A DNA stretch of 64,000 nt from a virus (IMGVR_UViG_3300030397_000598:2330-66329), one strand, 5' to 3'. Numbered from the stretch's first letter, positions 4,157-36,728 are shown. The notes: generated from the letters alone by a model not told the origin. A program made the numbers and translations.

Positions 4157-4187
4157 AAAAAAGGGCCATCCGAAGTAGAACGACCCT
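4157..4187 (-). terminator. Rho-independent terminator
   Basis: Minus strand AGGGTCGTTC-TACTTCG-GATGGCCCT followed by a T-run. Confidence 0.65.
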
Positions 4188-4695: not shown

Positions 4696-5124
4696 CTACA
4701 CTGTCTTTTGTTGCTTAAGTAGGGACCCCTTACCGGACTCAGTTACTATGTACCTGAATCTTTCCTCGTCAATTGTACGTAGGGAATGCATAATTCTTTT
4801 GTCTCTGCTTTTCTGGTCTCTACCGAATATGGACGAGAATAAACGGCCAAAAAATCCAGGAATAGAAGGTAAAACCCCCTTGAACAGTTCATATAGGCCC
4901 GAAGCCGTCAGGAATGAGAACACGGCAGACAGTGCCGTTAATTCAAAGCCTGTGGCCCGTAGAAAAAGCGCAATGACTGTACCACCAGCGAATACCCGTA
5001 ATATTGCGGGCATCTTCTCAAACATCCCTGGCGATACCTTGATATGCTTCATTGTAAAGCCCCACAGCATCGTTAAGGAAGTCAGTATCATGTCAAAATC
5101 TTGCATCAATTCAGGTGTGTTCAT
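4696..5124 (-). CDS. Holin-like membrane protein
   Basis: 142 aa, about 3 hydrophobic segments, basic C-terminal tail, last gene of the late operon. Confidence 0.5.
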   Translation of the reverse strand: MNTPELMQDFDMILTSLTMLWGFTMKHIKVSPGMFEKMPAILRVFAGGTVIALFLRATGFELTALSAVFSFLTASGLYELFKGVLPSIPGFFGRLFSSIFGRDQKSRDKRIMHSLRTIDEERFRYIVTESGKGSLLKQQKTV

Positions 5125-5570
5125 TTTGCTTGAATTTGCGGCGAACAGCTTGTTCTCATAGTATTAAAGTCGTCGCCTTGGATATGAATAATTGTTAATT
5201 TGAATTTTCCCGTGCTGTTTACGCTCTTTTCGAATCCCATATAGAAGTTTATGAGGGCATCACATAATGTTTTATCGCCGTCCTTATCATAATCTTGGTC
5301 CGCAATAAAAACGGCTGATTGGGCATACCTAAATAGCTTTGAATGAATGGCAGTCCGTACCGTCTCGGGACTCCATCCGGATTCTGTAGGCTCAACCGTA
5401 AACTGGATGTCAGAAATCTGCATATGCCCAGTTTCTTCAGGCACTTCGTATTCAAATGAAACAACCCGATCAACTGAGGATTTATAGACAATGGTGTTTT
5501 CAACATCCCCGGCACATCTTCCAATCAACAGACAAGCAACCAATAACAGACATAGGCTGCACTTATTCAT
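5121..5570 (-). CDS. Putative lipoprotein/exported protein (paralog of 7612-8043)
   Basis: Likely start ATG 5570: MNKCSLCLLLVACLLIGRC; shares a W..........FRY..S....DKD..C.A...F..GFE pattern with 7612-8043. Confidence 0.55.
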   Translation of the reverse strand: MNKCSLCLLLVACLLIGRCAGDVENTIVYKSSVDRVVSFEYEVPEETGHMQISDIQFTVEPTESGWSPETVRTAIHSKLFRYAQSAVFIADQDYDKDGDKTLCDALINFYMGFEKSVNSTGKFKLTIIHIQGDDFNTMRTSCSPQIQAK

Positions 5571-6084
5571 TAGTTGGATTTTTGCGCGGTTCGTAGATCG
5601 AACCAACAACTGAACAGGGTTTAAAATCTCTTACCTTGGCCCCTGTAAAATTCTCGGTCAGTGCTACGACTTCATGCAGGGCAATGGGAATGCCCTTTTC
5701 ATCCTCAAACCGGCATTCAAAAAGCCTCATCGCATCCCGTGTTGCTCCGTAATCATTGCGTCCGAAAAACCCAATGGCGGGAACAAATCGGATGCCTTCG
5801 AAATAGGAGTCCATGCAAGACCTGATAGTATCGCAAATCTCGGAAATGGGTATATCTCCGGTTCCCTCTGGGAGAGAAAAGGACATATAGGTTACTGACA
5901 AAACAACACTGTCGCCCTGACTTGTTGCTTGGTATTCGAAACTAGATCCCGGACGGCATTCAGTCGGACTAGGCGCTGGCGGTTGTATCAATTCACACGA
6001 TGAAAGATACCCCATGACAGCCAGTGCTGTCAGTACAATAAGAATGATATTTTGGATTAGCCTTTGCCTTGAAGACGGTTTCAT
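5563..6084 (-). CDS. Putative lipoprotein
   Basis: Basic N-terminus, hydrophobic stretch, LSSC lipobox, Pro-rich linker. Confidence 0.6.
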   Translation of the reverse strand: MKPSSRQRLIQNIILIVLTALAVMGYLSSCELIQPPAPSPTECRPGSSFEYQATSQGDSVVLSVTYMSFSLPEGTGDIPISEICDTIRSCMDSYFEGIRFVPAIGFFGRNDYGATRDAMRLFECRFEDEKGIPIALHEVVALTENFTGAKVRDFKPCSVVGSIYEPRKNPTNE

Positions 6085-6090
6085 AGTATA

Positions 6091-6417
6091 TTAATTTTGT
6101 GTAGTAATAGCTTGCTTTTGCCTCATCATTTCCATCTCGTGCAAATCTCTCTTTTGCTGCATTGAAAATTCGTGTTCCTCCCGCTCTCTCTGCGTCTTTG
6201 CCCTAATAGACTCGGCTTCTGCTTGATTTTTCTTGTATTCGCCTAGCTTACCCACATATGTGGTAACTCCCGTAAATAGAATACCTACAACGGCCAGTAA
6301 AAACCCAGCTACACCGCCCTCATATGATTGTAGATTAATGGAGCCGAGCCAAGCGTAGGCCACCATGTATATTTGAGTGTCAATGTTCCATCCTTTTAAA
6401 AATGTCTTAATCGGCAT
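6091..6417 (-). CDS. TM plus coiled-coil protein (holin/antiholin-like)
   Basis: Hydrophobic GGVAGFLLAVVGILFTGVTTYV followed by a charged coiled coil. Confidence 0.45.
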   Translation of the reverse strand: MPIKTFLKGWNIDTQIYMVAYAWLGSINLQSYEGGVAGFLLAVVGILFTGVTTYVGKLGEYKKNQAEAESIRAKTQREREEHEFSMQQKRDLHEMEMMRQKQAITTQN

Positions 6418-6427
6418 GATCTCAATT

Positions 6428-7285
6428 TTAGCACTTTGTCAACTCTACGTGAGAGCGTATTTTTTTACTACTAACTTCAAAGTTTAGCCATACACCAGCC
6501 TGAACAGCCTTAGGCATAAATATTTTTTCTGTGGCCCATCCGGAACCTTCTCTAAACTCGTCCTTATAGGTTCCGCCTTTCATATACCACATTGATTTTA
6601 TGTGCATCTCTCCATTTCTCTTTACGTCATACTGACCATGTGGGTGGACTAACCAATCATGGGTGTGCCCGGTGTATATAAAGTCTGCCTTTGGGGCAAC
6701 TGATGCCTCCCGGATTATACCTAATGCCCCTTTTGTCACTATTCCCCCAAATTTTCCATGCTGAAAGAAAAGATGCTTCGTTTTGGTGTTCCCTCCTCCC
6801 TCGTGCTGAAATGTGAACCGAATAAACCCGACGTATGGCAAATGCTCTATTTTTGATTTTCCCTTTATTCCAAGGCGAATAATCAGGTTGTCTATTGGGT
6901 CGCTCCCAACATTTTTATGCACTTGCGTTTCGTGGTTTCCATCAGAAAGGGCTATTATGTTTTCAGCGTATGGTGCCAGCTTTTCAGCAATGTCATTGTA
7001 AACCAAATCAAGGTAGTTGTCGGAGTTGTATTCTGGCCTTATACCCTTACGGCTTCGCCTGGGGTCGTACTTCCCTTCCATTAGGCAAAACAGATCACCA
7101 AAATGAAATATTCCTGCCTTCCTCTTTTGGGCTTCGTCAAAGTGAGAGAACAATAAATCCCGGCAACACTTCGGGTTGTCTATGTGGGCGTCTGATCCCA
7201 GTAAAAAACTAAACTTTTCGCCGGATTTGTACTTTATTTTTACATCGACTGTATTCTTTGACAGTCGGGTTACTTTCCACTTCAT
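6428..7285 (-). CDS. Calcineurin-like metallophosphoesterase
   Basis: Motifs SDAH, GDL, DGNHE, FQHG, GHTH in canonical order. Confidence 0.85.
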   Translation of the reverse strand: MKWKVTRLSKNTVDVKIKYKSGEKFSFLLGSDAHIDNPKCCRDLLFSHFDEAQKRKAGIFHFGDLFCLMEGKYDPRRSRKGIRPEYNSDNYLDLVYNDIAEKLAPYAENIIALSDGNHETQVHKNVGSDPIDNLIIRLGIKGKSKIEHLPYVGFIRFTFQHEGGGNTKTKHLFFQHGKFGGIVTKGALGIIREASVAPKADFIYTGHTHDWLVHPHGQYDVKRNGEMHIKSMWYMKGGTYKDEFREGSGWATEKIFMPKAVQAGVWLNFEVSSKKIRSHVELTKC

Positions 7286-7298
7286 GAATAGATAGTTA

Positions 7299-7622
7299 CT
7301 AAAGAAATACGCACCACTGGACGGTTATCCGTTCATTTCTGACTGGTACTCTAATTCCGGCTGAATCCCTTTCAGCCCTTAGAAACATTTGAGTATCGCC
7401 CCACAGTCCACAATCCGCCTTTTCTACTTTGCCGTTAACGGTGTCAAATGTTTTCATATACCAGGTGTTCGGGACGTGTCGTAATCCGTGCCAGAAAAAG
7501 ACCTCGCCCTGGTCGTTCGTTACTCCGGTATGGATACCGCAATTTTCGGAGTGCGGTATAATACCCTCGCTACAGGAGATCAAGAACAGGCAAATCGATA
7601 ATATGACAAGCCTAATTGCCAT
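7299..7622 (-). CDS. Putative lipoprotein
   Basis: MAIRLVILSICLFLISC lipobox. Confidence 0.6.
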   Translation of the reverse strand: MAIRLVILSICLFLISCSEGIIPHSENCGIHTGVTNDQGEVFFWHGLRHVPNTWYMKTFDTVNGKVEKADCGLWGDTQMFLRAERDSAGIRVPVRNERITVQWCVFL

Positions 7623-8043
7623 TGTGCATTGATTTATCTACGTTACATGATTTTCCCTGAGAGACAACCGTGTAGGACTTGAATTCGATTTCTATACCCA
7701 ACGAATCAGATGCATATTGCTCAAATCCACGCATAAAAAGGACACCAGCCTCACAGTAATCCTTGTCGGGGTTTAGTGGAGCCGAACGGAAAGAATACCG
7801 GTACATCTCGTCGAAAACAACCCCCTCTAGCTCCGATCTGGTCCAAGCGGCAGGATCATCCACCGTTGCACAAAACTGACGATTGTAGATATACCCCTCG
7901 TGGTTGCACCCTTCGTGCTTGTTATTCCATGTGAATAGCACGGCTTGAGAAAAGAAAAATTCATTCTTTTCGGATACCGGTATTTCGTGCTGGCACCCGC
8001 AAAGAACGAGCAATAAGAAAAGTGACTTAAATGCGGTTTTCAT
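7612..8043 (-). CDS. Putative lipoprotein (paralog of 5121-5570)
   Basis: MKTAFKSLFLLLVLCGC lipobox. Confidence 0.6.
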   Translation of the reverse strand: MKTAFKSLFLLLVLCGCQHEIPVSEKNEFFFSQAVLFTWNNKHEGCNHEGYIYNRQFCATVDDPAAWTRSELEGVVFDEMYRYSFRSAPLNPDKDYCEAGVLFMRGFEQYASDSLGIEIEFKSYTVVSQGKSCNVDKSMHNGN

Positions 8044-8052
8044 GTTATTTAT

Positions 8053-10320
8053 TTACACCCCTTTCATTCTCCAATTAAGGGACATGTTTACTGATATTGG
8101 CGCAGGTGAGCCGGTAGACCGGTCCACGATATTTACGACTATATTGCTGCCCGATGTGTTGTAGCTTCCCACGGTGTAAATGGGATTGTACGAGGCTGAA
8201 TAAACTTCCACCTCCCCTACTATCGTACTGCCGAGATTGATCTGAATTTGCCCGGAACCATCCGTAACACCAGCCTCTATTCCAAAGCCAGGTGAATAGG
8301 TTTCATTTCCATTCTGATATATCTTGTTGTTGCGCCTGATCTCTTTGACGCCACTAGTTCGTTCTCCATCGATGAACGATATACCCGCATTGCCAACACC
8401 GTCTTCTATATCATATATTCGATTGTCCGTAACGATGTATTGCGGCCCCGGCCCTATGCCGTTGTAGTTTCGAATTAGGAACCTTGGCCCGCCTATTTGG
8501 GTATTGCCTCTGACTATGAGCGTGGAATTATCCGGCATTGGGCCAAAAAACGGACTCCAACTACCCTCTATTATAGCGGCGTCTACGTTTGTCCAGCTAA
8601 TGTTGGGGTTGAAATTGAACTGGCAGTTTTCAATTATGCAAGTACCAAAAGCGGCGGAAATAGACAAAGGGTCCGCATTGTCTGATATCACATTAAACGT
8701 ACAATTTCGTATGACGAAATTAGTAACGCTAACGGCGTTCCATGCCCTGTTTTCAAAATAGCAGTCTTCAATGGTTATTTTAAATCCGTCGTGCTTGGTT
8801 TGAATAACGGCAATCATATCCTGCGCGGTCGGTACGGTAAAATCCACCCTGACAACATCGTATTCGTCGGCGGTGGCATCGGGACCGATTGTGTAGCCTA
8901 CTGTCTGCTTCGAGAAGTCCGCTGCACTCAGCAATTCCAGTTGATAAAATGGGCTTAACCAATCATCCTCAGTAGCGGTGAAAAATGTGGAACCCGAAGG
9001 AACCGCGACAAAAACCCGGTTGTTAGAATTTGCTTGACCTAGTTCGTCATAATTGATTACTATGTACAAGTTTTGCCCGGAACTGGCCGCATCCAAAACG
9101 ACATTAAAATTGTCGTCGTCGATACCGGTAATGCTGTGCCCTATCTCCGTAGTACTTCCCGCCTCGTAAACCCTGGTAGTGGGTGAGCCGGAAACATTGT
9201 CATCAAAAAAACTGAAATCATATCCGAGGTTATGGTTAATTGCATAGGTCGTTCCGCCTGTAGTGGTAAATGCTACGGCAAGGTTGATAAAAGGATCATG
9301 ATTCCCGTTATCGGTGCTGATGTGCGCATTGCCATAGAAGTAGCATTTTTTTATCAATACGTTATCTACCCAATCCTCGCTACCTGTTTTAACCTCAAGT
9401 TGCCCGTCCAGGAAAATAAGGTTATGAAACTGCACATTTCGACCGCCGCCATAGCAGTCTATATTGTCGTCTCCATTAGACGAATACAGTCCGCCGTCAA
9501 AATACCCAACCTCTGAAGCCACATTTAGCTTACCCCCGTCACCGGAATAATTAACGAAGCTGCAATCGATGAACCGAAAGTTATAGGCATGGATCATTGT
9601 AAACCCATTGCCGCCTCCATTTTGACCGTAAACATTCGATAAAAGCAAATTCTCTACCTTGTCCCCTACTCCGGTCCTGAAAGTGGAAACCACGTTGTAG
9701 TAATTCACGTTCATGTTTTTCAGGCTCACATCGTCCCCGGATACCATAAACACCTCACCGGTAACCGGCGTTGCGTCGTTCTTCTCAATAGTCAAATTGT
9801 CAACGATAACGTTATTTCCTGTGACTGTGAAAATGTCGCCATTGATCGAACTATAAACCCTTGCCCCTTGGGCAAAGGTGATCATGATAGAACTTTCAGA
9901 AACCGTTATGGCTGTCGAAATAAAATAATCACCGGGGGGGATGATGTAGTTTTTGCCGTCGCCTCCCGCATCCAATATTTGTTGAATAGTAATAGATTGA
10001 TTGGTTCCCGACATTGTGCCGCTGTTGTAGTCAGCGAATAAACCCAACGTGGACATATCGTAAATCGCGTCGGAATCGACTAGAACAGCGTGGCTTAAGC
10101 CGTCGTCTGCATCCAATACAAACACATCATCAGCGGTTAAGGAAGCACTGGCAGCGTTTCCCGACCTAATCGAATAAACGGCCCCGTCCGTTGTTTTTAC
10201 ATCCCGTCCAACGAGTATTGACATACCGGCCTTTATTCGTCCTATGTCGCTAAAGCAGTGCTGTGACACCAGCGAAAGCGGGAACAGGAACGACAATATG
10301 GATACAGCGTACTTTGTCAT
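8053..10320 (-). CDS. Pectin-lyase-like beta-helix tailspike/depolymerase-like protein with N-terminal signal peptide
   Basis: TNQSITIQQILDAGGDGKNYIIPPGDYFI start-of-helix motif, many I.NC.F/I.DC.F repeats; N-terminus MTKYAVSILSFLFPLSLVSQ. Confidence 0.7.
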   Translation of the reverse strand: MTKYAVSILSFLFPLSLVSQHCFSDIGRIKAGMSILVGRDVKTTDGAVYSIRSGNAASASLTADDVFVLDADDGLSHAVLVDSDAIYDMSTLGLFADYNSGTMSGTNQSITIQQILDAGGDGKNYIIPPGDYFISTAITVSESSIMITFAQGARVYSSINGDIFTVTGNNVIVDNLTIEKNDATPVTGEVFMVSGDDVSLKNMNVNYYNVVSTFRTGVGDKVENLLLSNVYGQNGGGNGFTMIHAYNFRFIDCSFVNYSGDGGKLNVASEVGYFDGGLYSSNGDDNIDCYGGGRNVQFHNLIFLDGQLEVKTGSEDWVDNVLIKKCYFYGNAHISTDNGNHDPFINLAVAFTTTGGTTYAINHNLGYDFSFFDDNVSGSPTTRVYEAGSTTEIGHSITGIDDDNFNVVLDAASSGQNLYIVINYDELGQANSNNRVFVAVPSGSTFFTATEDDWLSPFYQLELLSAADFSKQTVGYTIGPDATADEYDVVRVDFTVPTAQDMIAVIQTKHDGFKITIEDCYFENRAWNAVSVTNFVIRNCTFNVISDNADPLSISAAFGTCIIENCQFNFNPNISWTNVDAAIIEGSWSPFFGPMPDNSTLIVRGNTQIGGPRFLIRNYNGIGPGPQYIVTDNRIYDIEDGVGNAGISFIDGERTSGVKEIRRNNKIYQNGNETYSPGFGIEAGVTDGSGQIQINLGSTIVGEVEVYSASYNPIYTVGSYNTSGSNIVVNIVDRSTGSPAPISVNMSLNWRMKGV

Positions 10321-10323
10321 GAA

Positions 10324-13300
10324 TCAAAAGTTATTCGAAACAACAATCCAGGTGTCTGTAGTTGCTTCGGTGTCGTACTCAAGTGTAATGGTTTGGTATA
10401 CTGCCGTAAAAGCTGTGAAGGACCCGCCAGCGACTCCGTTTAGATTTTCGGCCGGATCTACCGTAATTGTCACCCCATCCCCTCCGGCAAAATCACCGGC
10501 GGCAACGACAAAGGTGATCCTATCCCCATCTGAAGCCCCAGCCGGGATAACGACCGTAGTTATGGCCCCGTCGTCGGCATCTTCAATGGTTTGGGTTGAA
10601 TTAAAGGCGGTTGTGGGAAGCGCGGGCGCTGTGGAGGCCGAAATCAATGCATCCGCACCGGGAGCGATAGCGGCGCCCAAAGACGTGTTACGGTAGATAT
10701 ACCCGGATGCATCCATGACCGCTATATCCGTCAGTGAATTATTTACCACCGCATTGTCTAATTGCAGTTGAGCAGTTACGCCGTCGCCTTCAATTTCTAG
10801 CTGTGCGGTTGGGGTATTGGTGCCGATCCCATTCAGCCACTCTTTCTCCGCTACGGTAAGGCCGTAGTTGGTACCGGTCAGGTTGGACATGGTGCCAGAC
10901 TCTAACCCCAATTCAACAAGTCGAACGGTCCCTGCCGCCCCTGTTGCCGTTAGTAGGTAGCGGGATAGAGTATAATTTCCATTAGCGCCACCGGTTTGCC
11001 CGATCGTTCCGGTAAAGTTCAAGCCATTGGCGTTAATCGATCCCGAAGATGGATTAAACGTACCAATATTAAAATCGATGTAATCCACATCTGAACCGCT
11101 GGTTCGATTGTCGGCACCGGTATTAAATCGCCAATGATAAGAACCGGTGCTATTCGGGTTAGACCCTGTGCTAACGAGAACCTGCCGACCAGCAGAATTT
11201 GCGGCATCTCCCAACATGGGTTGAATCCTGAAAGAATTACTTTGGTCGCTTCCGAATATCACCGCATGTTGAGTACCTGCGGCGTCAAGCTCTCGAACCC
11301 TAAAAAGCTTCGTACCCACCGAGCTGGTCACCTCGAACGGAAAACGATCAATCGAGAAACCACCATCATTGTAAGTCAACCGGCCTACCGAAAACCCGAT
11401 AAGATCTGTGTTGGCGGTTGCGGTCAGAGATGGGCCAACAGTAATAGAAGGGACTGCCGATGCGGCGATATTTGAAATGGGGGCCATTCTAATGGCTCCG
11501 CTTCCATTAGATACAGGGTCAAATGTTGGTCGAATATTGAACTGCCCGGTATTGAAAACCCGGACGTTTCCGGTATTATCAAAATCCCATTGATACGGCC
11601 CGGTGATATCGGTATTTTGCTCCTGTACGCCATCAAAAAACACACTATCTCCAACTACTTCCAAGAGGTGCCCGTCAACAACTGTCGTTGTCACGTCGGC
11701 CAGGGGAACGCTGTGCAAATCCCCTTCTGCATCATGGGCGAATATATGGGTAGTGGCCCCGACGTTGCCGGTTCCAGAAAGAATAGTCCCACTGCCAAAC
11801 GAGTTGAAACGAATGTCCGATAGGCTTCTAAATTCCATGTTCGCGTTGTCGATAAACAGGGAGGAGGCAGGACCGCTAAATATTTCTACCTCGTCTCCGG
11901 GACGGAATTGAATGAATCCCCTATCCGTTCCGTTATCGATCCCCGCGTTAACAGAGATCAGCGCCCCGGTACCTGAATTATCAAAAGTGTAAAAGCCTTC
12001 CAAATTGATTAGGGATGGTGTGGAGCGCCCCAGGTAGGCAATATCAAGGCCGGTCACCTGATTCATGCCCATGTATAGCCCAAGTCCGTCGCCATCTGTA
12101 AACTCAAGGCTTTGCAAGATCGAGTAAGTACGGTCGTTGTCTGTCTGAGACAAATTGGCGTTGGCAAGGTTGATCAAGTCGCCGACATTTGAAAGAGAAT
12201 CCGGTTCGGCCCACTCCCATCTACCTGTTACACTGTCTTGCAATACTGCAATCGACCCTATTGTTGGCCTTCCGATTGCGTTGCCGTTAATCCGTGACGT
12301 TTTAAAGTGCATGGTCTCGCCAAAACTGGAACTCAAAACCAGTGAATCCTCATGCGCTATTAATTGGCTAGTCTTGTTCGTATTACCGGCAAGTACTCTA
12401 ACTCCTCCCTTGTCATCGATGGTTACGTTATTTACGTTCGTTCCCGAGTTGGCTTGTAAATCAATTGATTCCGGACCAATGGCAACGTTGCCGTTAGCGT
12501 CAATTATGCTGTTATCCTGGCTGACGTTAATGACGACACCGCTTCGGCCTATGCTAACGTTAGACCCTACAACGTCAGTTGCTCCGTTTTCTAACCTGAG
12601 TGATTGTATGTTAACGCCGGTGCTGTCATTAATGATAACTTTGTTGTCTACATCAGACTCGTTATAACCTAATTCTAGGTAATGATCAGCCGTGGTATTT
12701 ACCAAAGTGTTTTGGGTTAGGTCCCCACCTAAGATGTGCGTCGAATCATTCAGGGCAGTAAGGCCATTATAGGCCGTGTCAGTTGCAATTGATGCCCCCG
12801 TGGCTATGACCTCCCGGAATCCAACACGCCCGGTTGCACTGTCAGTCACCATAAGGACCATGCCGTTTTTCATGGCACCAGCATAAAACATGCTATCAAG
12901 GATCTGAAAATTGAACTTTGCAGAAATTACCGTAAAGCTATCCTCTAAGGCCACATAATGATCATCGCCAACAGATATGCGCATGGAATCCCCATACATG
13001 TCAATATTAGACTGCCCGTTGAATCTCAGGCTATCCGCAACTGTACTGTTTATGGCTACCACTCCTGTGTTGTTTACCTGAACAGAACCCTGACTGAGCA
13101 ACCCGGCTCCCGCATCATTTTGCGTAGACACCAAACCCACATTTGTTGAATCAATCAAAATAGAACTCCACCGATAGTCAAGCAGTGCATTTGTCCCTGT
13201 TTGATGTTCTACCCTAAGTCTAATCCTTGGCCCAAACGGCCCTGCATCATCCGGCTCGATGGATATGTATTTATGCGTGGCCCCCAATCCTGTACCGATT

Positions 13301-14079
13301 GTATCCCCCAACATCAACCGTTGGTTATCGGCTCCTATATGAGTGGATTCAAGCAGAGGTGAAAAGTTCGCCCCTGATCCCGAAAGTCGGACTGTAGCAG
13401 GACCGGAAAGATAAGTGCCCGACTCGGCATTAACTTGAGTCCCTGAATAATATTCATTCCCATTCTGATACAGAAATACAGAATCGCCCCGAACAACTGA
13501 AGAATCGATAAAAGCCGATGTGTTGGAAAAAATCAACGTGTCCCCATTGTTATTGTTTAGGGTAATGATGGTATCTCCGGCCCCCGTAATCTCAAATGAA
13601 TAGTTAGAAATCGTACCGGGTCCCTGCGTTGCATCCAAGTCCAGCATCAAACTCAAGTGGGTTTCTATGCAAGCTTGCAGGGTGGCACTGATACCGGTGG
13701 CGTTCTCCGCCGTAAACAAAGGATAGTTCTGATTGGTCGTAAGTCGCATAATACCGGCCTGACCAAGAGCAGGAGCCAAACCAGTGCCGTTTACATCCCG
13801 GACATCCACGTTAATATTGCCGCCTGTGCTATTGATCTGCATGATTTCCCATACATCACAATTAGCAGTAAAGATTACATCACCGACCAACATATCCGCG
13901 TCTGTGTAGCGGCCAGCAGGATCATTAAAGAACGCTGTCAACTGCGCATCAGAAGTACCTCCCAGGTTAGAGGCAAAAATGTTTAGCCCAGCATTGAACT
14001 GTGTCAGGGTAGACGGAACTTGAGCGGCTACCCAAAGCGGAAGCCAGATCAGCAAGAGGGAGTATATCAACTTTTTCAT
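10324..14079 (-). CDS. Large tail-fibre/adhesin-like protein with Sec signal peptide
   Basis: Likely start ATG 14079 (TAATG overlap): MKKLIYSLLLIWLPLWVAAQ; Gly/Asn/Thr/Asp-rich; GIGTNTPTAQLEI motif typical of Bacteroidota fibre-like proteins. Confidence 0.6.
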   Translation of the reverse strand: MKKLIYSLLLIWLPLWVAAQVPSTLTQFNAGLNIFASNLGGTSDAQLTAFFNDPAGRYTDADMLVGDVIFTANCDVWEIMQINSTGGNINVDVRDVNGTGLAPALGQAGIMRLTTNQNYPLFTAENATGISATLQACIETHLSLMLDLDATQGPGTISNYSFEITGAGDTIITLNNNNGDTLIFSNTSAFIDSSVVRGDSVFLYQNGNEYYSGTQVNAESGTYLSGPATVRLSGSGANFSPLLESTHIGADNQRLMLGDTIGTGLGATHKYISIEPDDAGPFGPRIRLRVEHQTGTNALLDYRWSSILIDSTNVGLVSTQNDAGAGLLSQGSVQVNNTGVVAINSTVADSLRFNGQSNIDMYGDSMRISVGDDHYVALEDSFTVISAKFNFQILDSMFYAGAMKNGMVLMVTDSATGRVGFREVIATGASIATDTAYNGLTALNDSTHILGGDLTQNTLVNTTADHYLELGYNESDVDNKVIINDSTGVNIQSLRLENGATDVVGSNVSIGRSGVVINVSQDNSIIDANGNVAIGPESIDLQANSGTNVNNVTIDDKGGVRVLAGNTNKTSQLIAHEDSLVLSSSFGETMHFKTSRINGNAIGRPTIGSIAVLQDSVTGRWEWAEPDSLSNVGDLINLANANLSQTDNDRTYSILQSLEFTDGDGLGLYMGMNQVTGLDIAYLGRSTPSLINLEGFYTFDNSGTGALISVNAGIDNGTDRGFIQFRPGDEVEIFSGPASSLFIDNANMEFRSLSDIRFNSFGSGTILSGTGNVGATTHIFAHDAEGDLHSVPLADVTTTVVDGHLLEVVGDSVFFDGVQEQNTDITGPYQWDFDNTGNVRVFNTGQFNIRPTFDPVSNGSGAIRMAPISNIAASAVPSITVGPSLTATANTDLIGFSVGRLTYNDGGFSIDRFPFEVTSSVGTKLFRVRELDAAGTQHAVIFGSDQSNSFRIQPMLGDAANSAGRQVLVSTGSNPNSTGSYHWRFNTGADNRTSGSDVDYIDFNIGTFNPSSGSINANGLNFTGTIGQTGGANGNYTLSRYLLTATGAAGTVRLVELGLESGTMSNLTGTNYGLTVAEKEWLNGIGTNTPTAQLEIEGDGVTAQLQLDNAVVNNSLTDIAVMDASGYIYRNTSLGAAIAPGADALISASTAPALPTTAFNSTQTIEDADDGAITTVVIPAGASDGDRITFVVAAGDFAGGDGVTITVDPAENLNGVAGGSFTAFTAVYQTITLEYDTEATTDTWIVVSNNF

Positions 14080-15545
14080 TAGAGATTCAGCATTAAGGTC
14101 CAATTCGAAAATGCATTTAGATTGATCACTCTGGCCGTAAGGTCGCCGCCGCTGACTGAAATGGCCGGTTGCGGTTGTGGGTCTGACCCTTCATCCTGTA
14201 TGAAAGGTAAAACCGAAGTAGGGCCACCGCCCAACTGAGCAGCGGTATTCACGACTTGAATCATGGGCATGAACATATCGGCTATCCCGGTATTGTAGGT
14301 TGAAGTGGCGTAGTCAAAGACTACCTGAAAATCGTTGGCCCCACCCAAATCAGCAGTAACGCCCTCGATTCTCGCAGAAACGATTTCAACGCCGGAAGGG
14401 ATCGAAAAGGTACCAATGCCGCCCGCCCTTGAAAATGTAACACCTGCTGCCGTTGCCTTGACCATTGCTGAACCGGCTCCGGCTTCAGCATCATATACCT
14501 GTAATCCGCCAGTAGTCAAGGGAAAGAAGCCTTTGGTTCCTGCTCCATCCGTTCCATAGTAGTAGCTGTTACCGGGCGCTACGTTATCGTTAACCAATTG
14601 CAAGGGATCACCCACCGATCCATCGCCAGTAACCGAATTGGTTGAATTAACAGTTGATCCGCTTGTACTAAAGTTCGTGACCGCCGTTCCATCGCCGGGA
14701 TTATAGGTGTACGAACCACCGCCGTTATCGGTGAATATGGGGATTGGAATATTTCCCGCCTGGGTAACCGTATTCCAGGAGAAAGGAGCCGCGTTACTAG
14801 ATAAAACTGCTGCCGGATGCATTTCGGCAACAATCGCGTCAATAATGGTTTGCAAATCTGTTCCAGCCGGGTAGTTAGTTCCGCCGATGTTAGTGGCGGA
14901 TGTCGTGTTGACGTTTCCAGCGTTAATGTTAACGTTAAAGGTATTGGGTTCGTCAGTGGTTACCGTTAACACACCTGACGCAAACGAAACGTTAGTTACG
15001 TTGCTGCCGCTGCCGCCTGATCCGGTCGGAAATCCTGTGATGTTGACAGACCCGCCCGTACTGATATTAAGGGTCAAAACACCTGTTCCGGAATTGAAAG
15101 AACCCGAGCTAAGAACGCCGTCCGATCCGCCGCCACCTGATCCGGAATTACATAGGCAAGCTGTAATAGCATTGATAGCAGCCGTAACGTTGCCGTAGGT
15201 CGTTTGATTGGAGTTAAATGAAACCCTTGTGCCCCTGTAGTCTTCCAGGGTAAATGTTGCGCCCCTTACGATCAAGTTGATAGGTTTGTAAAGGAGCCGG
15301 GACGGCTTGTCTGAGAATTTAACGAGAATACCGTCAACGAATTCACGCCCGTTTGTTCCGGGGCTGCAATTATCGCAATTGCTGTTATCGACTTCTTCAC
15401 AGGATAGACATTCAAGTACAACAGTACTTCCGGAAAGCAAGGCCCTTGGTTGTGTGTCGGGGTTTCCGTTTCCGGGTCCATCCGGTGCGGGGTTGGGATT
15501 ACACGCCCCAATAAGCAATAGGCAGAGTATAACTAGGTATCTCAT
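14079..15545 (-). CDS. Fibre/decoration-like protein with lipoprotein signal
   Basis: Likely start ATG 15545: MRYLVILCLLLIGAC; Gly-rich repeats, DNGGGSYTY and VTGDGSVGDPLQL..PGNSYYYGT motifs. Confidence 0.55.
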   Translation of the reverse strand: MRYLVILCLLLIGACNPNPAPDGPGNGNPDTQPRALLSGSTVVLECLSCEEVDNSNCDNCSPGTNGREFVDGILVKFSDKPSRLLYKPINLIVRGATFTLEDYRGTRVSFNSNQTTYGNVTAAINAITACLCNSGSGGGGSDGVLSSGSFNSGTGVLTLNISTGGSVNITGFPTGSGGSGSNVTNVSFASGVLTVTTDEPNTFNVNINAGNVNTTSATNIGGTNYPAGTDLQTIIDAIVAEMHPAAVLSSNAAPFSWNTVTQAGNIPIPIFTDNGGGSYTYNPGDGTAVTNFSTSGSTVNSTNSVTGDGSVGDPLQLVNDNVAPGNSYYYGTDGAGTKGFFPLTTGGLQVYDAEAGAGSAMVKATAAGVTFSRAGGIGTFSIPSGVEIVSARIEGVTADLGGANDFQVVFDYATSTYNTGIADMFMPMIQVVNTAAQLGGGPTSVLPFIQDEGSDPQPQPAISVSGGDLTARVINLNAFSNWTLMLNL

Positions 15546-15627: not shown

Positions 15628-16410
15628 CTACTCTTCAGGAGGGCAATTGAACACCTCGGAAGCGCCGCAATTGTTTGCCTCTACGCCTCCGAAAGTAGGC
15701 GCTATATCGCCGACAATCATAAAGCTGATTTCATAGCCGCCAAGAACGTTATTTACAGCAACGTTGACGTTGGTTGCTGTCGCTCCGGCTGCTGTCAATG
15801 CGGCAGCAACATCGGTTTGCAACTGTGCGGCGGTAGCGGCATCAGCGGCAGCGGTTCCGGTATAGGCGTATGGAGAATTGTCAAGGGCTTCGTCCGGGCT
15901 GCCATCGTAGGAGACCGGGCCGATAGCATCAAATCCAAATACCTGCCATTTGATCGCCTGAGCAATTTCACAGCAGCGGGTGCCGTTCAGGTCGGAATCG
16001 TCGGAAAGCTTCACAGATGCCAGAACGCACGCGCCAACGTGAACGATGGTCAAAACGTCGGCCTCCCAAGAAACCTCAACTTTGGCGTCCACCTCTTTGG
16101 TGCGGGTGATCTGATAGATAACCTCTTTCAAGGCTTCCATATCTTCCACCGGTACCGCTCCGGGTGCTTTCATAAAAGTGTAAGATCCATCCAGGTTTTG
16201 AATGTCCTTGGTCAGATCATAGGTAATGCCGTCGAATACAACACTGACGACAGATTCACCCGTGGGTGCAGCGCCGGTTACCGTGTCTTCGCAAACCTGA
16301 TCGTTTGTGCAATCGCACTTGTCGTCAAACTTCAGGTTGTTGGTCGGGCAAGCGTAAGCGTTAGCTCTCTTCTTACCGAAATCGCTAATGTTATGGATAA
16401 TACCACTCAT
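15628..16410 (-). CDS. Putative virion structural protein, Cys-rich
   Basis: 260 aa within the structural operon. Confidence 0.5.
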   Translation of the reverse strand: MSGIIHNISDFGKKRANAYACPTNNLKFDDKCDCTNDQVCEDTVTGAAPTGESVVSVVFDGITYDLTKDIQNLDGSYTFMKAPGAVPVEDMEALKEVIYQITRTKEVDAKVEVSWEADVLTIVHVGACVLASVKLSDDSDLNGTRCCEIAQAIKWQVFGFDAIGPVSYDGSPDEALDNSPYAYTGTAAADAATAAQLQTDVAAALTAAGATATNVNVAVNNVLGGYEISFMIVGDIAPTFGGVEANNCGASEVFNCPPEE

Positions 16411-16802
16411 TTTGCTTGAGTTTTAAAAATTGTATCAATGTCGGCCCACTTATTCCCGTCCGGGTGTGGGCATTTAATTTCCTCTTTGAAGGTTTTTATT
16501 CCAGGTTTCAGACGAATCCTAAAAAACTCTTCCAAGCTCAATGGTTCACCGCCTTTGTCAAGCGTCCTCATGACGTACTCGAAATAAGGCTTTGTTGCAG
16601 ATGGGCAACCGCATAATGTGCAACCGTGCATGATCATACCCGGCAACGGCTCTACAATGCCGTATTTTTCGCACGAAATGCAAATTTCTATCCGGGCAAA
16701 AGCGTGTTCGTCGGTGACCCGGTTAGACCCTGTGTCAAGAAGCATTCTAAACTTTTCGTCCCTCCATTCCTTTAGCCTACCCGAAACGGTACCCATACCC
16801 AT
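16407..16802 (-). CDS. Zn-finger-like protein
   Basis: Likely start 16802; RIEICISCE..GCTLCGCPSATK (CxxC/CxxCxC). Confidence 0.55.
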   Translation of the reverse strand: MGMGTVSGRLKEWRDEKFRMLLDTGSNRVTDEHAFARIEICISCEKYGIVEPLPGMIMHGCTLCGCPSATKPYFEYVMRTLDKGGEPLSLEEFFRIRLKPGIKTFKEEIKCPHPDGNKWADIDTIFKTQAK

Positions 16803-17475
16803 CTGATTTTTCGTCAAAACAATCATCCTGACAATCGCAATCGCAATCATCCTCAAGGCAACCGCAGTCACTACAACAGTTGGCCGCGATCCCTTTGTAC
16901 TCGTCAAAGCATCCGTCACCGTTGTTGTTTTTCATGTAGTGATCCAGGTTGTAAAAAGCCCGTTCCCGCTTTGCTAAGACCGATTGTTGAATTGACTGAT
17001 AATCGGCCTTGCTGGCGGTCTCTATCCCGTTTCCGGTGATCTTAACTAGACCGGCAGCGGCTATTTTCACGTTGATGTGGGGCAACTGATCATTTACAAC
17101 CGTCCAGGCCAGATAAGGACCCAGGAAATCACACCACAGTTTTTCCAAGCATTCAGTGGTAAACTTTGGCGCATTCTCCCAATAGTCTTTATTACTCGGT
17201 GGGTTGCCGCTCGTCGCCTGTATTGCCCTGCGAATAATGCCGTCAGAAAAAACAGTATCGCCGATAGCGTAGGTAGCTGTATTATCGTAGACAACGCAAT
17301 TGTATTCAACTAAGTCCGCCAGCAACTTGTCATAAAAGGCGCTTCCGAGGCACTGGTTGAACTCACAATATTCTATGTCGAATATTGTCCTAAGCTCACA
17401 CTTGGGGAATTCCTTACTGATGTTGGTGAAGTAGATAACCTCACTCGGTCGCAGTATTGTCCTCCTCGTTGCCAT
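16777..17475 (-). CDS. Head-tail connector-like protein with an inserted carbohydrate-binding-like module
   Basis: Directly after the portal; LGSAFYDKLLADL pattern; internal YDNTATYAIGDTVFSDG..AIQATSGNPPSNKDYWE segment. Confidence 0.5.
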   Translation of the reverse strand: MATRRTILRPSEVIYFTNISKEFPKCELRTIFDIEYCEFNQCLGSAFYDKLLADLVEYNCVVYDNTATYAIGDTVFSDGIIRRAIQATSGNPPSNKDYWENAPKFTTECLEKLWCDFLGPYLAWTVVNDQLPHINVKIAAAGLVKITGNGIETASKADYQSIQQSVLAKRERAFYNLDHYMKNNNGDGCFDEYKGIAANCCSDCGCLEDDCDCDCQDDCFDEKSDGYGYRFG

Positions 17476-18784
17476 TGCTTAGGTTTTGATTTTGTGAACC
17501 ATTTTTCAAAGAACTTAGCCGGTCTACCAACTCGTCAATAAGATTCGGGAACTTGATTGTCCGCATCGTTTCGCCTGGGTTGGTAATCTTGCCGATCTCG
17601 GTAAATATGCGCCCCCAAATGTTCTCATAGAACCGTTGATTTGGCGTAACTACCGACGTATTTTTCACGGTGAAAAGATCCAAAATGATATTTCCACCTA
17701 TGTTTGCTTTTGCTGGTGTAGCACCGGTTAACTGCCTGTCCCAATCCCAAATGGAATAAATGGCGGAAGCGTGTTTATCAACCATGTGCTTATCAAACTG
17801 ATGATCACGGTTGACTTCCAAAGGAATAGGGGTAGGCGGCTGCGCTCCACTAGGGTAGTTCATGAGCGCGATTGTACGCGCCTTCTCTCCCTCGTTTGTG
17901 GTAAGCTGCCTTAGCTTGTAGGATGCGCTATCTAAGTCGTGATTGTACACCCCTTCCTTACCGGTCTTTCTCTTGACTACCTTTCGGTTTGGTGGTGGCT
18001 CCTCCATCGCTAGTATCATCTTTGATATTAGCTCGGTACCGGCAACCTTACAGTCCTTTTGCTTTCCGGCATGCTCCACGTAAAGCGACTCAAGTACAGA
18101 CAGTATTGCCGGTCGCCCGTAGTATGGGGATGCGTCCGCCTTTCGCTTGATATGCACTATCGTTTCAAGTACATCACCATTGCGTTTTCTGTTCCAAACA
18201 AAGTCAGACCGTATGTCGGAACCGAAGGCCAAAAAAGGTTTTTTCTTAGCCCAAAAATCCTCACTCCAATACGGCGTGTTTACGATCCGGTTTGCCGTCC
18301 CTCTTTTGCTGCGCAAGTAAGCAGCGTTTTTCGGGTGGATCGGTTCTATCTTCACGTTCCAAGTGCTGTTCACCCTGCTTAACCGGATCAGAACATAAGC
18401 GTTGCCGGTGTCAGAGTAGTTGTCAAAAATCACCTCGGTGTGATCTATGACGGCAGATAGGTCTATACCGATAGAAAAAAGCAATTCTTCGAACTGACTT
18501 TTTTCGGATTCAGATAAAAGGCTTTCTTCATCTTCCCTTTTCCTAGCTGTTCGCGTCGGAATTATTTCAACTCCTGAGCCAAACGCCCAGGTCTTCACGG
18601 CATTCTTGCATGCCGCGTGGGATGGACTTAATTCGGTGAGATCCGATATTAGTTGCAGCATCGAGTGTGAAGACTCGTTTTGCGTACCGTAGTAAGGTAT
18701 GATGTCGTATTTCCTGAATAAATCGTTCAGGTGTAACTCATCCTTTACGGCCTCCAATATGGGATTCACCAGACTAAAGACCAT
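17441..18784 (-). CDS. Portal protein
   Basis: 447 aa; GNAYVLI, IEPIHP and YYGRP motifs typical of portals. Confidence 0.75.
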   Translation of the reverse strand: MVFSLVNPILEAVKDELHLNDLFRKYDIIPYYGTQNESSHSMLQLISDLTELSPSHAACKNAVKTWAFGSGVEIIPTRTARKREDEESLLSESEKSQFEELLFSIGIDLSAVIDHTEVIFDNYSDTGNAYVLIRLSRVNSTWNVKIEPIHPKNAAYLRSKRGTANRIVNTPYWSEDFWAKKKPFLAFGSDIRSDFVWNRKRNGDVLETIVHIKRKADASPYYGRPAILSVLESLYVEHAGKQKDCKVAGTELISKMILAMEEPPPNRKVVKRKTGKEGVYNHDLDSASYKLRQLTTNEGEKARTIALMNYPSGAQPPTPIPLEVNRDHQFDKHMVDKHASAIYSIWDWDRQLTGATPAKANIGGNIILDLFTVKNTSVVTPNQRFYENIWGRIFTEIGKITNPGETMRTIKFPNLIDELVDRLSSLKNGSQNQNLSNGNEEDNTATE

Positions 18785-18793
18785 CGTGTAGTT

Positions 18794-19072
18794 TTATTTT
18801 GCTGATTGCTTCACCTCTTCCACGTATGGACAGAAGCTAAGTTTTGCGTATTGTGCGGGCGTCGCTTCGGGGAAAATCTCATTGTACCCGATGATTTGGC
18901 CCTTTCCGTTTTTGACGGCTTCGCGCTCGTTGCGGATTTTCCGAACTTCAGACACCTTCCGATAGACTTTCACCGGTCCACCGATACCGACGTATTTGCG
19001 CTCGTCAGCAACGCAGTGCAACCGGGGACTGTCTTTCGTCCATTGAGCCGGACCGTATTGTACCTTTGCCAT
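18794..19072 (-). CDS. Hypothetical structural-operon protein
   Basis: 92 aa between the tube-like gene and the portal. Confidence 0.55.
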   Translation of the reverse strand: MAKVQYGPAQWTKDSPRLHCVADERKYVGIGGPVKVYRKVSEVRKIRNEREAVKNGKGQIIGYNEIFPEATPAQYAKLSFCPYVEEVKQSAK

Positions 19073-19108
19073 TATTTGCAGAGTTTTCAGTTTAAAAATT
19101 AGCTCCGA

Positions 19109-19840
19109 CTACACCGGAAGCAATGACTCGGCGACCTCCCATACCATAGGAGCAATCGAAGACTCTCCAACAAGTATGATTTGATCCCCGGCTTTGGACT
19201 GGCCGAACTGGCCGGAACGGTCCGCGTGGGTGCCAATTCGCAGCGTCTTCACTTGCCGTTCAAACGTGCTTCCGTTCCATTCTACGCCGACTATACGGGC
19301 TTGGCAGTTGTTGTCGTAGATAAGGGCGATCAGATCACAGCAGTTAACCAGCTTGGCGAATGCATTCCGGTTGGCCTTACTCTTGCCTTCGAAATTGATG
19401 TCAATAACCTGCTCGTAAACGTCCGCATCCTCAGTAAAGGTGAATTCGTAAAATGAACTCTTACGGTCGAAGGTCATCTTAGCCATAAGAGATCCACCGG
19501 TAACAAGGGGCGGAACTGCGGTCCAACACTGGTTTGTAGCGTCAAAGTAATTGGCATTGCCGAGTGCAACATCTGCCTCAACAGCGGCCCAATCGAAAAA
19601 GTCGTACTTTTCATAGTAGATAGTCCTGATTCCGCCTTTGGTCTTGCAGGTTGTGTTGTCTCCGATGTCCTCTACATCGTCACAATCTGTAACACAGGTC
19701 ATCCCCAACACAGAAGAACGGACAGGGGCCGTCAGTGCCGCCAGGATAAACGACAGGACGAAAGCCTGAAGTGACCCGGCAAACAATGAAACAGCCAGAA
19801 AGGCAACCATAACCCCGTTTAAAATTTTCCTGGTATTCAT
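19109..19840 (-). CDS. Major tail tube-like protein with hydrophobic N-terminal leader
   Basis: Likely start ATG 19840 (removes the overlap with the capsid gene); C..C...GGIRTIY and F.Q.....F.GK patterns; about 45-aa hydrophobic leader. Confidence 0.5.
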   Translation of the reverse strand: MNTRKILNGVMVAFLAVSLFAGSLQAFVLSFILAALTAPVRSSVLGMTCVTDCDDVEDIGDNTTCKTKGGIRTIYYEKYDFFDWAAVEADVALGNANYFDATNQCWTAVPPLVTGGSLMAKMTFDRKSSFYEFTFTEDADVYEQVIDINFEGKSKANRNAFAKLVNCCDLIALIYDNNCQARIVGVEWNGSTFERQVKTLRIGTHADRSGQFGQSKAGDQIILVGESSIAPMVWEVAESLLPV

Positions 19841-19878
19841 TTTCGGATAAATTGAAAGTTCTAAAAAAGGGTTATCGA

Positions 19879-21102
19879 TTAAGCCGGTACTACATACTGT
19901 TGCGTAGCAACGATGTAGTCGGTGTCGGCAATTTGGGTGGACATCAAAGAATGAGCGGCCCAATAGATTTTACCCAGTTCTTTCAGGCTAGTCTCGCGCT
20001 GGATAATAAGCCCGACACCTTGATCAGCAGACGGGATATTACCAAAGCTTCCACCCATGCAGATAACACCGCTTGCGGCCAGGGCGGCAAAGTGCGTTGT
20101 ACCGGTCAGGTATTCATCATAGCAATTCACATCTGACAGCGGAACAACAGGAATGCCGTCGATGTAGTAAACCTTATGGGAGGTCGTGTTGCGCCGTGCG
20201 TCGCCGTTACCGCTTCCGCCGACGATATTTTCAGCAGTAAGTCTCGGATTGATACACACGTTGCTGATACACTGCTCATTGTACGTATCAACGATAGCCG
20301 AATAAATGGAATCTGATACCTTGAAAAGTGGCTGATAAACCGTTTGGTTTCTTACCATTGACCCCTTGTTGATCAACCGGCGGAAACTCGGCTTCGCGGC
20401 GGATTTCAGTTTATCGAACAATGCGATAACATCGCCGGTGTACCTTTCGCCACTGGTGTCAAAGTCGGAAGTTGAGAAAGCTCCCGGCAGATCCAGGTGA
20501 CGTGTAGCGGCATCCGCACCCATGCTTTTCAATAGAAGCAGGTAGCCATTGGCAGTGTCAATCGTCTTCTTAAAAAGGGCTTTTGCCTCCTCGGTTACAC
20601 CATCAGCAAAAACAATAGAAGACGGATCATAAAGCCCGCCCACGGTCATGGTGATTCGGGCACCTTCAGCGGCCTGTTCAACCAACATGCGGGTAACTTC
20701 ATTCAGGACCCTCTCGCCATTGGCGTCTAAGCGTACCGCGTCCGTTCCTCTCCAATTCAGGAATTGCTCGAAACAGGAGTTGAAAAAATCGTCGTAACAA
20801 AGCTCCTCGTTGATCTTTGCGTTTACCGGGGTGAGTTCCTGCTTTCTGACCCGCAGAGATCCGGTTGGGTCCCACGCACAATTGCGGTGTGGTTGCCACA
20901 GGAAAGGCGAACCGCTCAGGGTGTGCAGGATGTATTTTTGAAGTTTGGTAAGCTGCATCCATCCGAAACAGCCGAAACGCCGCTGCCAGAAGTCAAAATC
21001 GCTCAAAACTTCCTCCCGAGCGAAAAAGTTTAGGCTCTTAGAAGGGAATTGCAACTGGTTATCTTGGCGCTTGAAATTGGGCCTTACTAAAATCTGTCCC
21101 AT
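19879..21102 (-). CDS. Major capsid protein
   Basis: 407 aa directly after protease/scaffold; CAWDPTG..KINEELCYDDF pattern, YYIDGIPVV near the C-terminus. Confidence 0.65.
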   Translation of the reverse strand: MGQILVRPNFKRQDNQLQFPSKSLNFFAREEVLSDFDFWQRRFGCFGWMQLTKLQKYILHTLSGSPFLWQPHRNCAWDPTGSLRVRKQELTPVNAKINEELCYDDFFNSCFEQFLNWRGTDAVRLDANGERVLNEVTRMLVEQAAEGARITMTVGGLYDPSSIVFADGVTEEAKALFKKTIDTANGYLLLLKSMGADAATRHLDLPGAFSTSDFDTSGERYTGDVIALFDKLKSAAKPSFRRLINKGSMVRNQTVYQPLFKVSDSIYSAIVDTYNEQCISNVCINPRLTAENIVGGSGNGDARRNTTSHKVYYIDGIPVVPLSDVNCYDEYLTGTTHFAALAASGVICMGGSFGNIPSADQGVGLIIQRETSLKELGKIYWAAHSLMSTQIADTDYIVATQQYVVPA

Positions 21103-21158
21103 TTTTGTGTCTATTTGTCGATTACGAATGTTATTAGAGAGCCGGTTTTCGGCTGTTT

Positions 21159-22568: not shown

Positions 22569-22999
22569 TAATACTCATGCACAAGTCCAAAGTAAAGGAA
22601 AGGAGAATTGACCGCGCCGTAAAAGGGCGCGATTGGTGTTTTTAATTAGTGTGCGGTTTGTTTTGGCGCGTTTCGTTAGTACAGGAAGCTATGAAATTAT
22701 ACATTTTAGTGTTTTTCTGAGCTTTTTAGGCTTTTCTGCTGAAGGGTTTACAAACATAGCTCTTCCGTTCTATACTTGGAGTATGCTTAAAAAGATACGA
22801 ACATGGGGCAATAAATTTGTATTTAAAGAGAGTACAAACCCGTCCTGAATGAGTGCTTTGAAGCAGTAGAGTAGCAGGTTCACTGCGCCGTACCGTTTGA
22901 TTATAAGTGTTTCCAAAGGTAGCTCCGAATCTTTATTTTTTTTGCTAACCTGCCTAGTATTGCTAAGGAAAGTCGAAAAAATAAGGCAAAAATTGCATT

Positions 23000-23063
23000 T
23001 GGACAAAAAAATAGGTATTATTGTCTAAACTCCTGTCCAAGAAACTGTCCATAGCTATGTCCG
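23000..23063 (+). repeat. Four TGTC(C/T) direct repeats at exact 12-bp period plus one inverted copy at the Fic 5' end
   Basis: TGTCTA 23022, TGTCCA 23034, TGTCCA 23046, TGTCCG 23058; TGGACA 23000. Confidence 0.6.
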
Positions 23064-24217: not shown

Positions 24218-24305
24218 AGTTGGGTCCTTTCTCGAAAAGTGATTAAGGTATGTTCCATTGTAAGTGGTGAATGGCTAGCGCTGTGCCCGATAAATCCAAA
24301 CTCTT

Positions 24306-35408: not shown

Positions 35409-35441
35409 GAGTAGCTTGTGTTTATTTGTTGTGTCTTACGA

Positions 35442-36717: not shown

Positions 36718-36728
36718 AGTAAAATGTT

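Follow-up and report, generated by a model that had tools for sequence, protein, structure and literature searches.

Predicted export signals on late fibre-type proteins of a putative Bacteroidota phage, and a possible periplasmic route for tail appendages

The stretch of DNA analysed here, referred to as the window, consists of 64,000 nucleotides (IMGVR_UViG_3300030397_000598:2330-66329), i.e. bases 2330-66329 of a 67,633-bp IMG/VR virus record with a CheckV completeness of 100%. The segment 5121-15545, situated at the 3′ end of the late operon, carries nine tightly packed genes (A to I), all on the minus strand. Seven of the nine open with an export signal, as the initial annotation had proposed, either a signal peptidase I (SPI) leader followed by Gln or a lipobox. 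Judged from the sequence, the leader and lipobox proteins of this block are very probably exported. They include a 1251-aa fibre-like protein (H), a 755-aa protein with a predicted beta-helix (G) and a 488-aa putative lipoprotein fibre (I). By analogy with a cultured phage, G, H and I may be virion appendages that are matured in the periplasm and join the particles at lysis, a reading that comes close to being probable. The phage itself, which is uncultured, is best explained as a temperate Bacteroidota siphophage, with the block as the variable host-recognition end of its late operon.

The nine genes, from I to A, are as follows; a slash marks the predicted cleavage site.

14079..15545, minus strand: gene I, 488-aa putative lipoprotein fibre; MRYLVILCLLLIGA/C, lipobox IGA/C at residues 12-15
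10324..14079, minus strand: gene H, 1251-aa fibre-like protein; SPI leader MKKLIYSLLLIWLPLWVAA/Q (VAA/Q)
8053..10320, minus strand: gene G, 755-aa protein; SPI leader MTKYAVSILSFLFPLSLVS/Q (LVS/Q)
7612..8043, minus strand: gene F, 143-aa lipoprotein of the A/B/F family; MKTAFKSLFLLLVLCG/C (LCG/C)
7299..7622, minus strand: gene E, 107-aa lipoprotein; MAIRLVILSICLFLIS/C (LIS/C)
6428..7285, minus strand: gene D, 285-aa metallophosphoesterase without leader; phrog_7339, E = 1.9e-12; GDxxx, GNHE and GHTH motifs
6091..6417, minus strand: gene C, 108-aa membrane protein with a transmembrane (TM) segment and a charged C-terminus, holin-like, without leader
5563..6084, minus strand: gene B, 173-aa lipoprotein of the A/B/F family; ...AVMGYLSS/C (LSS/C)
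5121..5570, minus strand: gene A, 149-aa lipoprotein of the A/B/F family; MNKCSLCLLLVA/C (LVA/C)

Export signals were called by the authors' own heuristics plus conservation, from ATG starts. In the leaders of G and H a basic n-region precedes a hydrophobic core, the −1 residue is small and the +1 residue is Gln, in agreement with the Q-rule, i.e. Gln at position +1 of Bacteroidetes signal peptidase I substrates (Bochtler et al., 2018, PMC5837995; PMC10653852). A lipobox of the form [LVI][ASTVIG][GAS]C following a short hydrophobic leader is present in I, E, F, B and A. Signal-bearing genes are concentrated in the block, where they make up 7 of 9 genes, compared with about 6 of about 85 in the rest of the genome (Fisher p = 5e-6).

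True starts located downstream of the hydrophobic segments would have made these signals an artefact, but this is ruled out by four lines of evidence. The genes abut or share a few bases, the H start overlapping the I stop and the G ATG lying 3 nt past the H stop. Retention in a relative is the second: in L036, a 62,368-bp ENA contig with identical gene order and the sole full relative detected, the counterparts I′, E′, F′ and A′ retain a lipobox, and H′ and G′ a leader with Gln. Among proteins sharing the N-terminus of H, 33 of 38 (H included) show a leader with Gln, the −1 residue being A (15), G (9), S (8) or T (1), and in an alignment of 26 sequences of the H N-module (A1) no column apart from Met1 and Gln20 is invariant. 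Lastly, the lipobox Cys is invariant in the A/B/F small-lipoprotein family (alignment A4). Retention of signals in homologues, which the initial annotation had named as one of its checks, is seen in L036 and in the H family.

That the hydrophobic N-termini are not export signals, the starts being mis-called or the segments being structural parts of proteins that fold in the cytoplasm, is very improbable. In its favour, virion proteins of tailed phages are not known to be exported. However, orthologues conserve the leader region and offer no other start ahead of the conserved mature part, and the invariant Gln(+1) together with A, G, S or T at −1 in all 33 leaders is a signature of host processing; the abutting G start and the invariant lipobox Cys also stand against it. 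The persistence of Gln(+1) in an unused hydrophobic segment would have no reason, and the leaders are therefore read as used signals.

Richness in Cys was considered as a further argument for export and rejected, as cytoplasmic virion proteins are equally Cys-rich. Among the leaderless virion-module proteins, the DUF6712 protein, Dit, Tal and a 242-aa protein (16407-17475, 27648-31564 and 36842-37570, minus strand) each contain 13-15 Cys, and a small protein at 16407-16793 shows Zn-ribbon-like CxxC pairs.

The genes A to I and the gene directly upstream of I, designated J, gave no Pfam or NCBIfam match at E ≤ 0.1 to the C-terminal sorting domain (CTD) of the type IX secretion system (T9SS; TIGR04183/TIGR04131 type). 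G and H should thus remain periplasmic unless another route exists. Searches of A to J in Pfam, PHROGs and NCBIfam gave no match other than phrog_7339 for D. An SPI leader with Gln is also found on early- and middle-region proteins of 294, 174, 153 and 121 aa (41964-44327, 52775-53789 and 55532-55897, minus strand), which have no family match.

The block is hypervariable when compared with the virion core. Between the window and L036 the core shows 50-73% identity, while I shows 38-40%, H aligns over its N-module only (30%) and G has no similarity, its position in L036 being occupied by an unrelated 1403-aa protein that also carries a leader with Gln. Tal, a tail-tip protein, is conserved evenly between the two and has no variable tip. 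The leader-bearing block is thus where the late operon varies most and faces the host.

H consists of a signal peptide, a conserved N-module and a long distal part.

14023..14079, minus strand: H signal peptide, residues 1-19; predicted cleavage VAA/Q, Q20 invariant in A1
13600..14022, minus strand: H conserved N-module, residues 20-160; predicted six-stranded beta-barrel plus helix

An exhaustive phmmer search with H gave 37 remote homologues with total lengths of 92-810 aa, all matching residues 1 to about 160 only. The H-type architecture is therefore a constant N-module joined to swappable distal parts of 90-1100 residues, the arrangement of an anchor with a variable tip. AF2 on the family alignment predicts a separate leader helix (residues 2-18), a six-stranded beta-barrel (29-111, pLDDT >90) and a helix (132-151). 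Three mature modules (21-165) are predicted to form a homotrimer, with an ipSAE of 0.87 and 0.00 for the best control, a mark reached in calibration by 20 of 30 solved homomers and 1 of 23 monomers. The runs share at least 51% of contacts with a partner pLDDT of at least 81, and the helices and first mature residues lie in the interface. According to these models the N-module is a probable trimeric anchor or neck. Fold matches to the N-domain are mostly viral (best BFVD E = 3.6e-6; Atlas viral clusters at TM 0.5-0.6), and those in BFVD include the N-termini of T1- and Tls-type tail fibres at E ~4e-3. The term fibre-like for H rests on the architecture, these fold matches and the predicted trimer.

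Three homologues of the H module have no leader and begin precisely at the mature N-terminus, with stop codons just upstream. The leader is thus an extra element, added to a module whose production in other phages is cytoplasmic. The genomic context of one of the three, P0047, was uninformative. H also displays 16 Bacteroidota O-glycosylation sequons, D[ST][AILVMT], with 7.3 expected, and none of 300 shuffles reached 16; periplasmic modification is a possible benefit of export. No match to H was found among PDB sequences, a search for related loci in viral and metagenome contigs with H, the 447-aa portal-like protein or alignment A3 gave nothing, and neither megablast of 25 kb nor tblastn of two N-modules matched any of 50,697 phage records. 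The sequences in A1 differ too much to be scanned for by pattern. A literature search gave no mention of PF26696.

H-type modules also occur in tandem (334 aa and ~790 aa, both with leader and Gln) in conserved cassettes of ~10 kb in Flavilitoribacter nigricans, a Lewinella metagenome-assembled genome (MAG) and, twice, a Saprospiraceae MAG, and these sequence matches in Flavilitoribacter, Lewinella and Saprospiraceae point to a host among the Bacteroidota. The cassette loci are L043 (Flavilitoribacter nigricans contig76), L044, L045 and L046, including two sites in one Saprospiraceae MAG chromosome. Their genes are a signal-anchored Amidase_2 endolysin, a Cys-rich 114-aa protein, a 74-aa TM protein, a 256-261-aa I-like protein, the tandem H-type fibres and further TM proteins. 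There is no recognisable capsid or tail gene within 10 kb of the H-type cassettes, and PHROGs recognised an amidase and an S8 protease in the Saprospiraceae cassette and nothing else.

I has a conserved Cys-rich N-domain (CxxC-x8-CxxC, CxC), a Gly-rich shaft and a divergent C-terminal tip. Its orthologue in L036, P0003, carries the lipobox MKKLILFALLALIGS/C; the first ~300 residues are conserved between the two and the tip has diverged. I also carries a motif of phage fibres.

14517..14603, minus strand: phage-fibre motif in I, residues 315-343, LVNDNVAPGNSYYYGTDGAGTKGF

The motif (LxNDxxAPGNSYYYGTDxxGxKGF/W) matches 34 IMG/VR loci, in every case within a leaderless fibre-type protein, and other fibre proteins contain it in repeated form. 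The Atlas model of I (pTM 0.25) is too poor for use.

G was described initially as a beta-helix depolymerase-like protein. The first part finds support in the ESM Atlas model alone (pTM 0.65), which gives TM 0.49-0.54 to beta-helix clusters and a feature score of 0.92, and by this model G looks like a right-handed beta-helix. The depolymerase function is inferred. No sequence relative of G was found among 5.8 billion clusters in a word-limited search, or among PDB sequences, and there is no Pfam or PHROG match.

The same pattern of leaders is found in Cellulophaga phage phi10:1 (KC821618; Assiduviridae). The proteins gp091-gp094 are annotated there as structural protein, with experimental tandem mass spectrometry (MS/MS) proteomics, and all four start with a leader and Gln, as does the pectate lyase gp095 that adjoins gp094. 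Like the phage of the window, phi10:1 is a Bacteroidota siphophage, a cultured one, and its run of late genes lies between tail and holin-like genes, with leaders such as MKKILLLLLFISASLSA/Q and one glycan lyase. However, there is no sequence similarity to A to I, phi10:1 has no lipoprotein fibre, and its block follows the tail genes whereas the block here follows the head genes. The annotation of the phi10:1 record is silent on leaders. It had been stated at the outset that neither proposed mechanism could be matched to a characterised system; this is supported, as no characterised mechanism covers the case. The pattern itself is not unique, since phi10:1 displays it.

Other known systems show partial likeness. 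The leaders of G, H, H′, G′ and the 33 of 38 H-family proteins share with Q-rule substrates the n-h-c layout, the small −1 residue and Gln at +1; the papers on the Q-rule treat cellular proteins, whereas the putative substrates here are late fibre- and tailspike-type proteins of a phage, with cleavage and cyclisation predicted. Porphyromonas gingivalis phages (‘Nixviridae’) encode Q-rule proteins with no assigned function, proposed to modify the outer membrane (PMC10367356). These are likewise phage-encoded with predicted export and the Q-rule, but no fibre or beta-helix identity is reported for them. T5 Llp, Cor (T1/phi80/N15) and lambda Bor and Lom are similar in being phage-encoded, exported or lipid-anchored, and situated beside receptor-binding or lysis genes. 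However, they are single small proteins, unlike the fibre-like and predicted beta-helix proteins of the block with their 488-1251 aa; Bor and Lom are prophage-expressed, while the block belongs to a late operon; and no homology of the block proteins to any of them was found in Pfam, PHROGs or NCBIfam. Side tail fibres of T1/T5 type and tailspike depolymerases share the conserved N-anchor, the exchangeable distal parts, the predicted trimer and a putative beta-helix enzyme beside a fibre; the fold resemblance of the H N-module to T1- and Tls-type fibre N-termini is weak, at the level of a generic beta-barrel.

Canonical tail fibres have no export signal and are assembled in the cytoplasm, and textbook morphogenesis of tailed phages is wholly cytoplasmic. 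That G, H and I are nevertheless virion appendages matured in the periplasm is the reading favoured here, in line with the first option of the initial annotation, export of fibres with attachment during or after lysis, on the grounds of an architecture like that of a receptor-binding protein with leaderless homologues, the lack of any other variable candidate for receptor binding, and the precedent of phi10:1. G and H would accumulate in the periplasm, and I and the small lipoproteins would be lipid-anchored. Maturation there would consist of pyroglutamate capping, disulfides and perhaps O-glycosylation of H, while the small lipoproteins may help assembly in the periplasm or assist in lysis. 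Holin-led lysis would mix the compartments, the trimeric fibres and the enzyme would then dock onto finished tails, and the docked proteins would serve as receptor-binding or glycan-cutting appendages. The wider form of the proposal is held more tentatively, as a possibility of lower standing: that assembly of this tailed phage ends outside the cytoplasm, with fibres, an enzyme and a lipid-anchored fibre exported by Sec and lipoprotein signals and capped by pyroglutamate docking at lysis, and that the H N-module is a widespread docking family of this route in Bacteroidota phages.

Several observations weigh against this reading. Incorporation into the virion is argued for this phage by analogy with phi10:1 alone, with no homology to the phi10:1 proteins, and the proteomic detection in phi10:1 could come from co-purifying envelope material. 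A lipid-anchored fibre such as I is hard to place on a particle, and its tip domain is also found on a leaderless 259-aa protein of Saprospiraceae elements, so the fold does not require export. The H N-domain compared with the PDB remains at the level of a generic beta-barrel (Foldseek E ≥ 6.5e-3; VIA Z ≤ 6.6, ~6). Sequons number 0 in both G and I, with 3.6 and 2.1 expected, and glycosylation therefore cannot be the general reason for export. No tail docking partner was identified for the exported proteins.

The main alternative, possible but rather doubtful, is that the exported proteins never join the particle and act on the envelope of the infected cell, H and I as binders and G as a glycan-cutter, masking or destroying the receptor or capsule from beyond the cytoplasm at a late stage of infection. 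Progeny and competing phages would be kept off the dying cell and its debris and release would be eased, a logic like that of T5 Llp or of a receptor-destroying enzyme. The genuine signals are as expected from such a role, no loading of periplasmic proteins onto tails is known, I is predicted to be lipid-anchored, and the small lipoproteins adjoin genes of receptor-binding type as Llp and Cor do. The authors of the Porphyromonas gingivalis phage study proposed modification of the outer membrane by Q-rule proteins (PMC10367356), hypervariability is equally expected of receptor-specific masking, and Tal (764 aa) and the large Dit (544 aa) could provide receptor binding. Tal, however, has no variable tip, and the ~2,500 aa of I, H and G would be a very large outlay for exclusion. 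The N-module of H has the layout of a virion fibre, with conserved anchor and exchangeable tip, and occurs leaderless in other phage contigs; the leader-bearing counterparts in phi10:1 are annotated as structural and MS/MS-detected; and periplasmic G and H would have no recognised route to the surface, as no T9SS CTD was found. The initial annotation had offered a different envelope role, in which the prophage displays an adhesin/depolymerase complex on the surface of the lysogen. The phage is temperate (integrase at 44706-45971), and exported proteins with a lipoprotein as anchor could form such a complex, but the fit to a late operon is poor and the idea is highly improbable. Genes A to I overlap or sit 0-13 nt apart with no intergenic terminator before 4162-4187, the sole strong one, and the GC content of the block (0.44-0.51) is like that of the neighbouring structural genes and unlike that of the low-GC island at 22.6-27.6 kb (0.37-0.41), which has the character of a moron. 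L036 does not have this island yet keeps the block, and there is no T9SS CTD for surface delivery. The autonomous unit and deviant composition of Bor/Lom-type morons are thus not seen in the block.

It had been claimed that the fibre- and tailspike-like proteins all carry signals, which goes too far; the leaders of G, H and I are genuine, but 4 of the 7 signal-bearing proteins are small lipoproteins, three of them paralogous, and not fibres. The three paralogues, A, B and F, belong to a single family of small alpha/beta lipoproteins, and E is unrelated to them. The AF2 model of the A/B/F family (pLDDT 81) yields T-fold- and SPFH-like matches only, at noise level (Z ~8), so that in the comparison with Llp and Cor the fold search gives T-fold-like matches only, and there is no family match. 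In L036 the orthologue of E has 101 aa, 40% identity and the lipobox FLS/C, that of A shows 25% identity, and C, which has no family match, also has an orthologue.

Two-component spanins pair a small outer-membrane lipoprotein with a type-II membrane protein whose periplasmic part is a coiled coil, often as embedded genes, near holin and endolysin. A, B, E and F, together with the holin-like C and a 142-aa membrane open reading frame (ORF) that follows A, could form an outer-membrane or lysis arm of spanin or disruptin type, which would be compatible with G, H and I as virion appendages or as proteins acting on the envelope; this too is an unlikely rather than a likely assignment. The four genes adjoin the holin-like gene at the end of the operon, o-spanins are lipoproteins, the lipobox Cys is invariant in A/B/F and the set is retained in L036. 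Against this, no i-spanin-like partner (N-terminal TM segment and periplasmic coiled coil) and no embedded or overlapped gene pair was found, and the set consists of three globular alpha/beta paralogues and the unrelated E, not of a short Pro-rich o-spanin. In addition E and F come directly after G, with D between them and C, and no endolysin is recognised in the window. Pfam and PHROGs recognised none among ~40 window proteins, despite the holin-like gene at 6091-6417; the lytic enzyme is either novel or among the exported unknowns.

The record comes from aquatic metagenomes of a single study, and the minus strand holds nearly all genes of the window. The main features outside the block are listed below.

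44706-45971: integrase
40855-41433: small terminase
39523-40848: large terminase
31566-35408: tape measure, 1280 aa, then tail-tip proteins of 544 aa (large Dit, 29939-31564) and 764 aa (Tal, 27648-29942)
21159-22559: S49 protease/scaffold
15628..16410, minus strand: gene J, 260 aa, Cys- and Ala-rich, without leader, directly upstream of I; 57% identity in L036
4696-5124, minus strand: 142-aa ORF with two or three TM segments, directly after A, ahead of the terminator; overlapped by a 160-aa ORF on the plus strand
4162..4187, minus strand: best terminator-like hairpin, 10-bp stem then T-run, downstream of the block

The hairpin at 4162-4187 is the probable end of the late operon, and the 142-aa ORF is probably its last gene. 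J has two relatives only, and the survey of the phage clade therefore extends to L036 and no further. The order of the late genes is unusual and is kept in L036, with terminase and tail genes (27648-40848) and only then the protease/capsid module (15628-22568), which includes a 447-aa portal-sized protein. In this module a 407-aa ORF (19879-21102, minus strand) can be aligned to the 343-aa protein in the capsid position of L036 from residue 68 on, not before, and its true start is probably a downstream ATG. The low-GC island (22600-27600) is situated between the tail-tip and head genes and contains a Fic-domain gene (23021-24217, plus strand), a lipoprotein (24710-25390, minus strand) and a 4-TM protein (25714-26436, plus strand) that ends in EAD11 (PF19964, E = 4e-13). 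A run of TM proteins with no family match adjoins the integrase. ARAGORN predicts a tRNA at 63681-63752 (minus strand) with anticodon TTA, an ochre suppressor type; stop-codon recoding, which this tRNA-like gene suggested, was rejected, as TAA ends more long ORFs than any other stop codon (29 of 70 on the minus strand).

A literature search found no description of exported tail fibres, and an export route for host-recognition proteins of a phage appears to be new to the literature. The locus adds a leader-bearing N-terminal family of docking type with an invariant Gln(+1), its natural leaderless counterparts, a putative lipoprotein fibre and an accompanying family of small lipoproteins. It also forms a compact test set, with the N-module in 33 leader-bearing and 3 leaderless versions, the lipoprotein fibre and a relative with swapped distal parts. 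If action on the envelope should prove true, the proteins would form a new class of factors, derived from fibres, that mask receptors or aid release. If periplasmic maturation is true, the prediction of receptor-binding proteins would change, since signal-bearing proteins are now usually discarded as non-structural; the expression of fibres and depolymerases for host-range engineering or enzyme use would change as well, and the coupling of lysis timing to infectivity would need rethinking.

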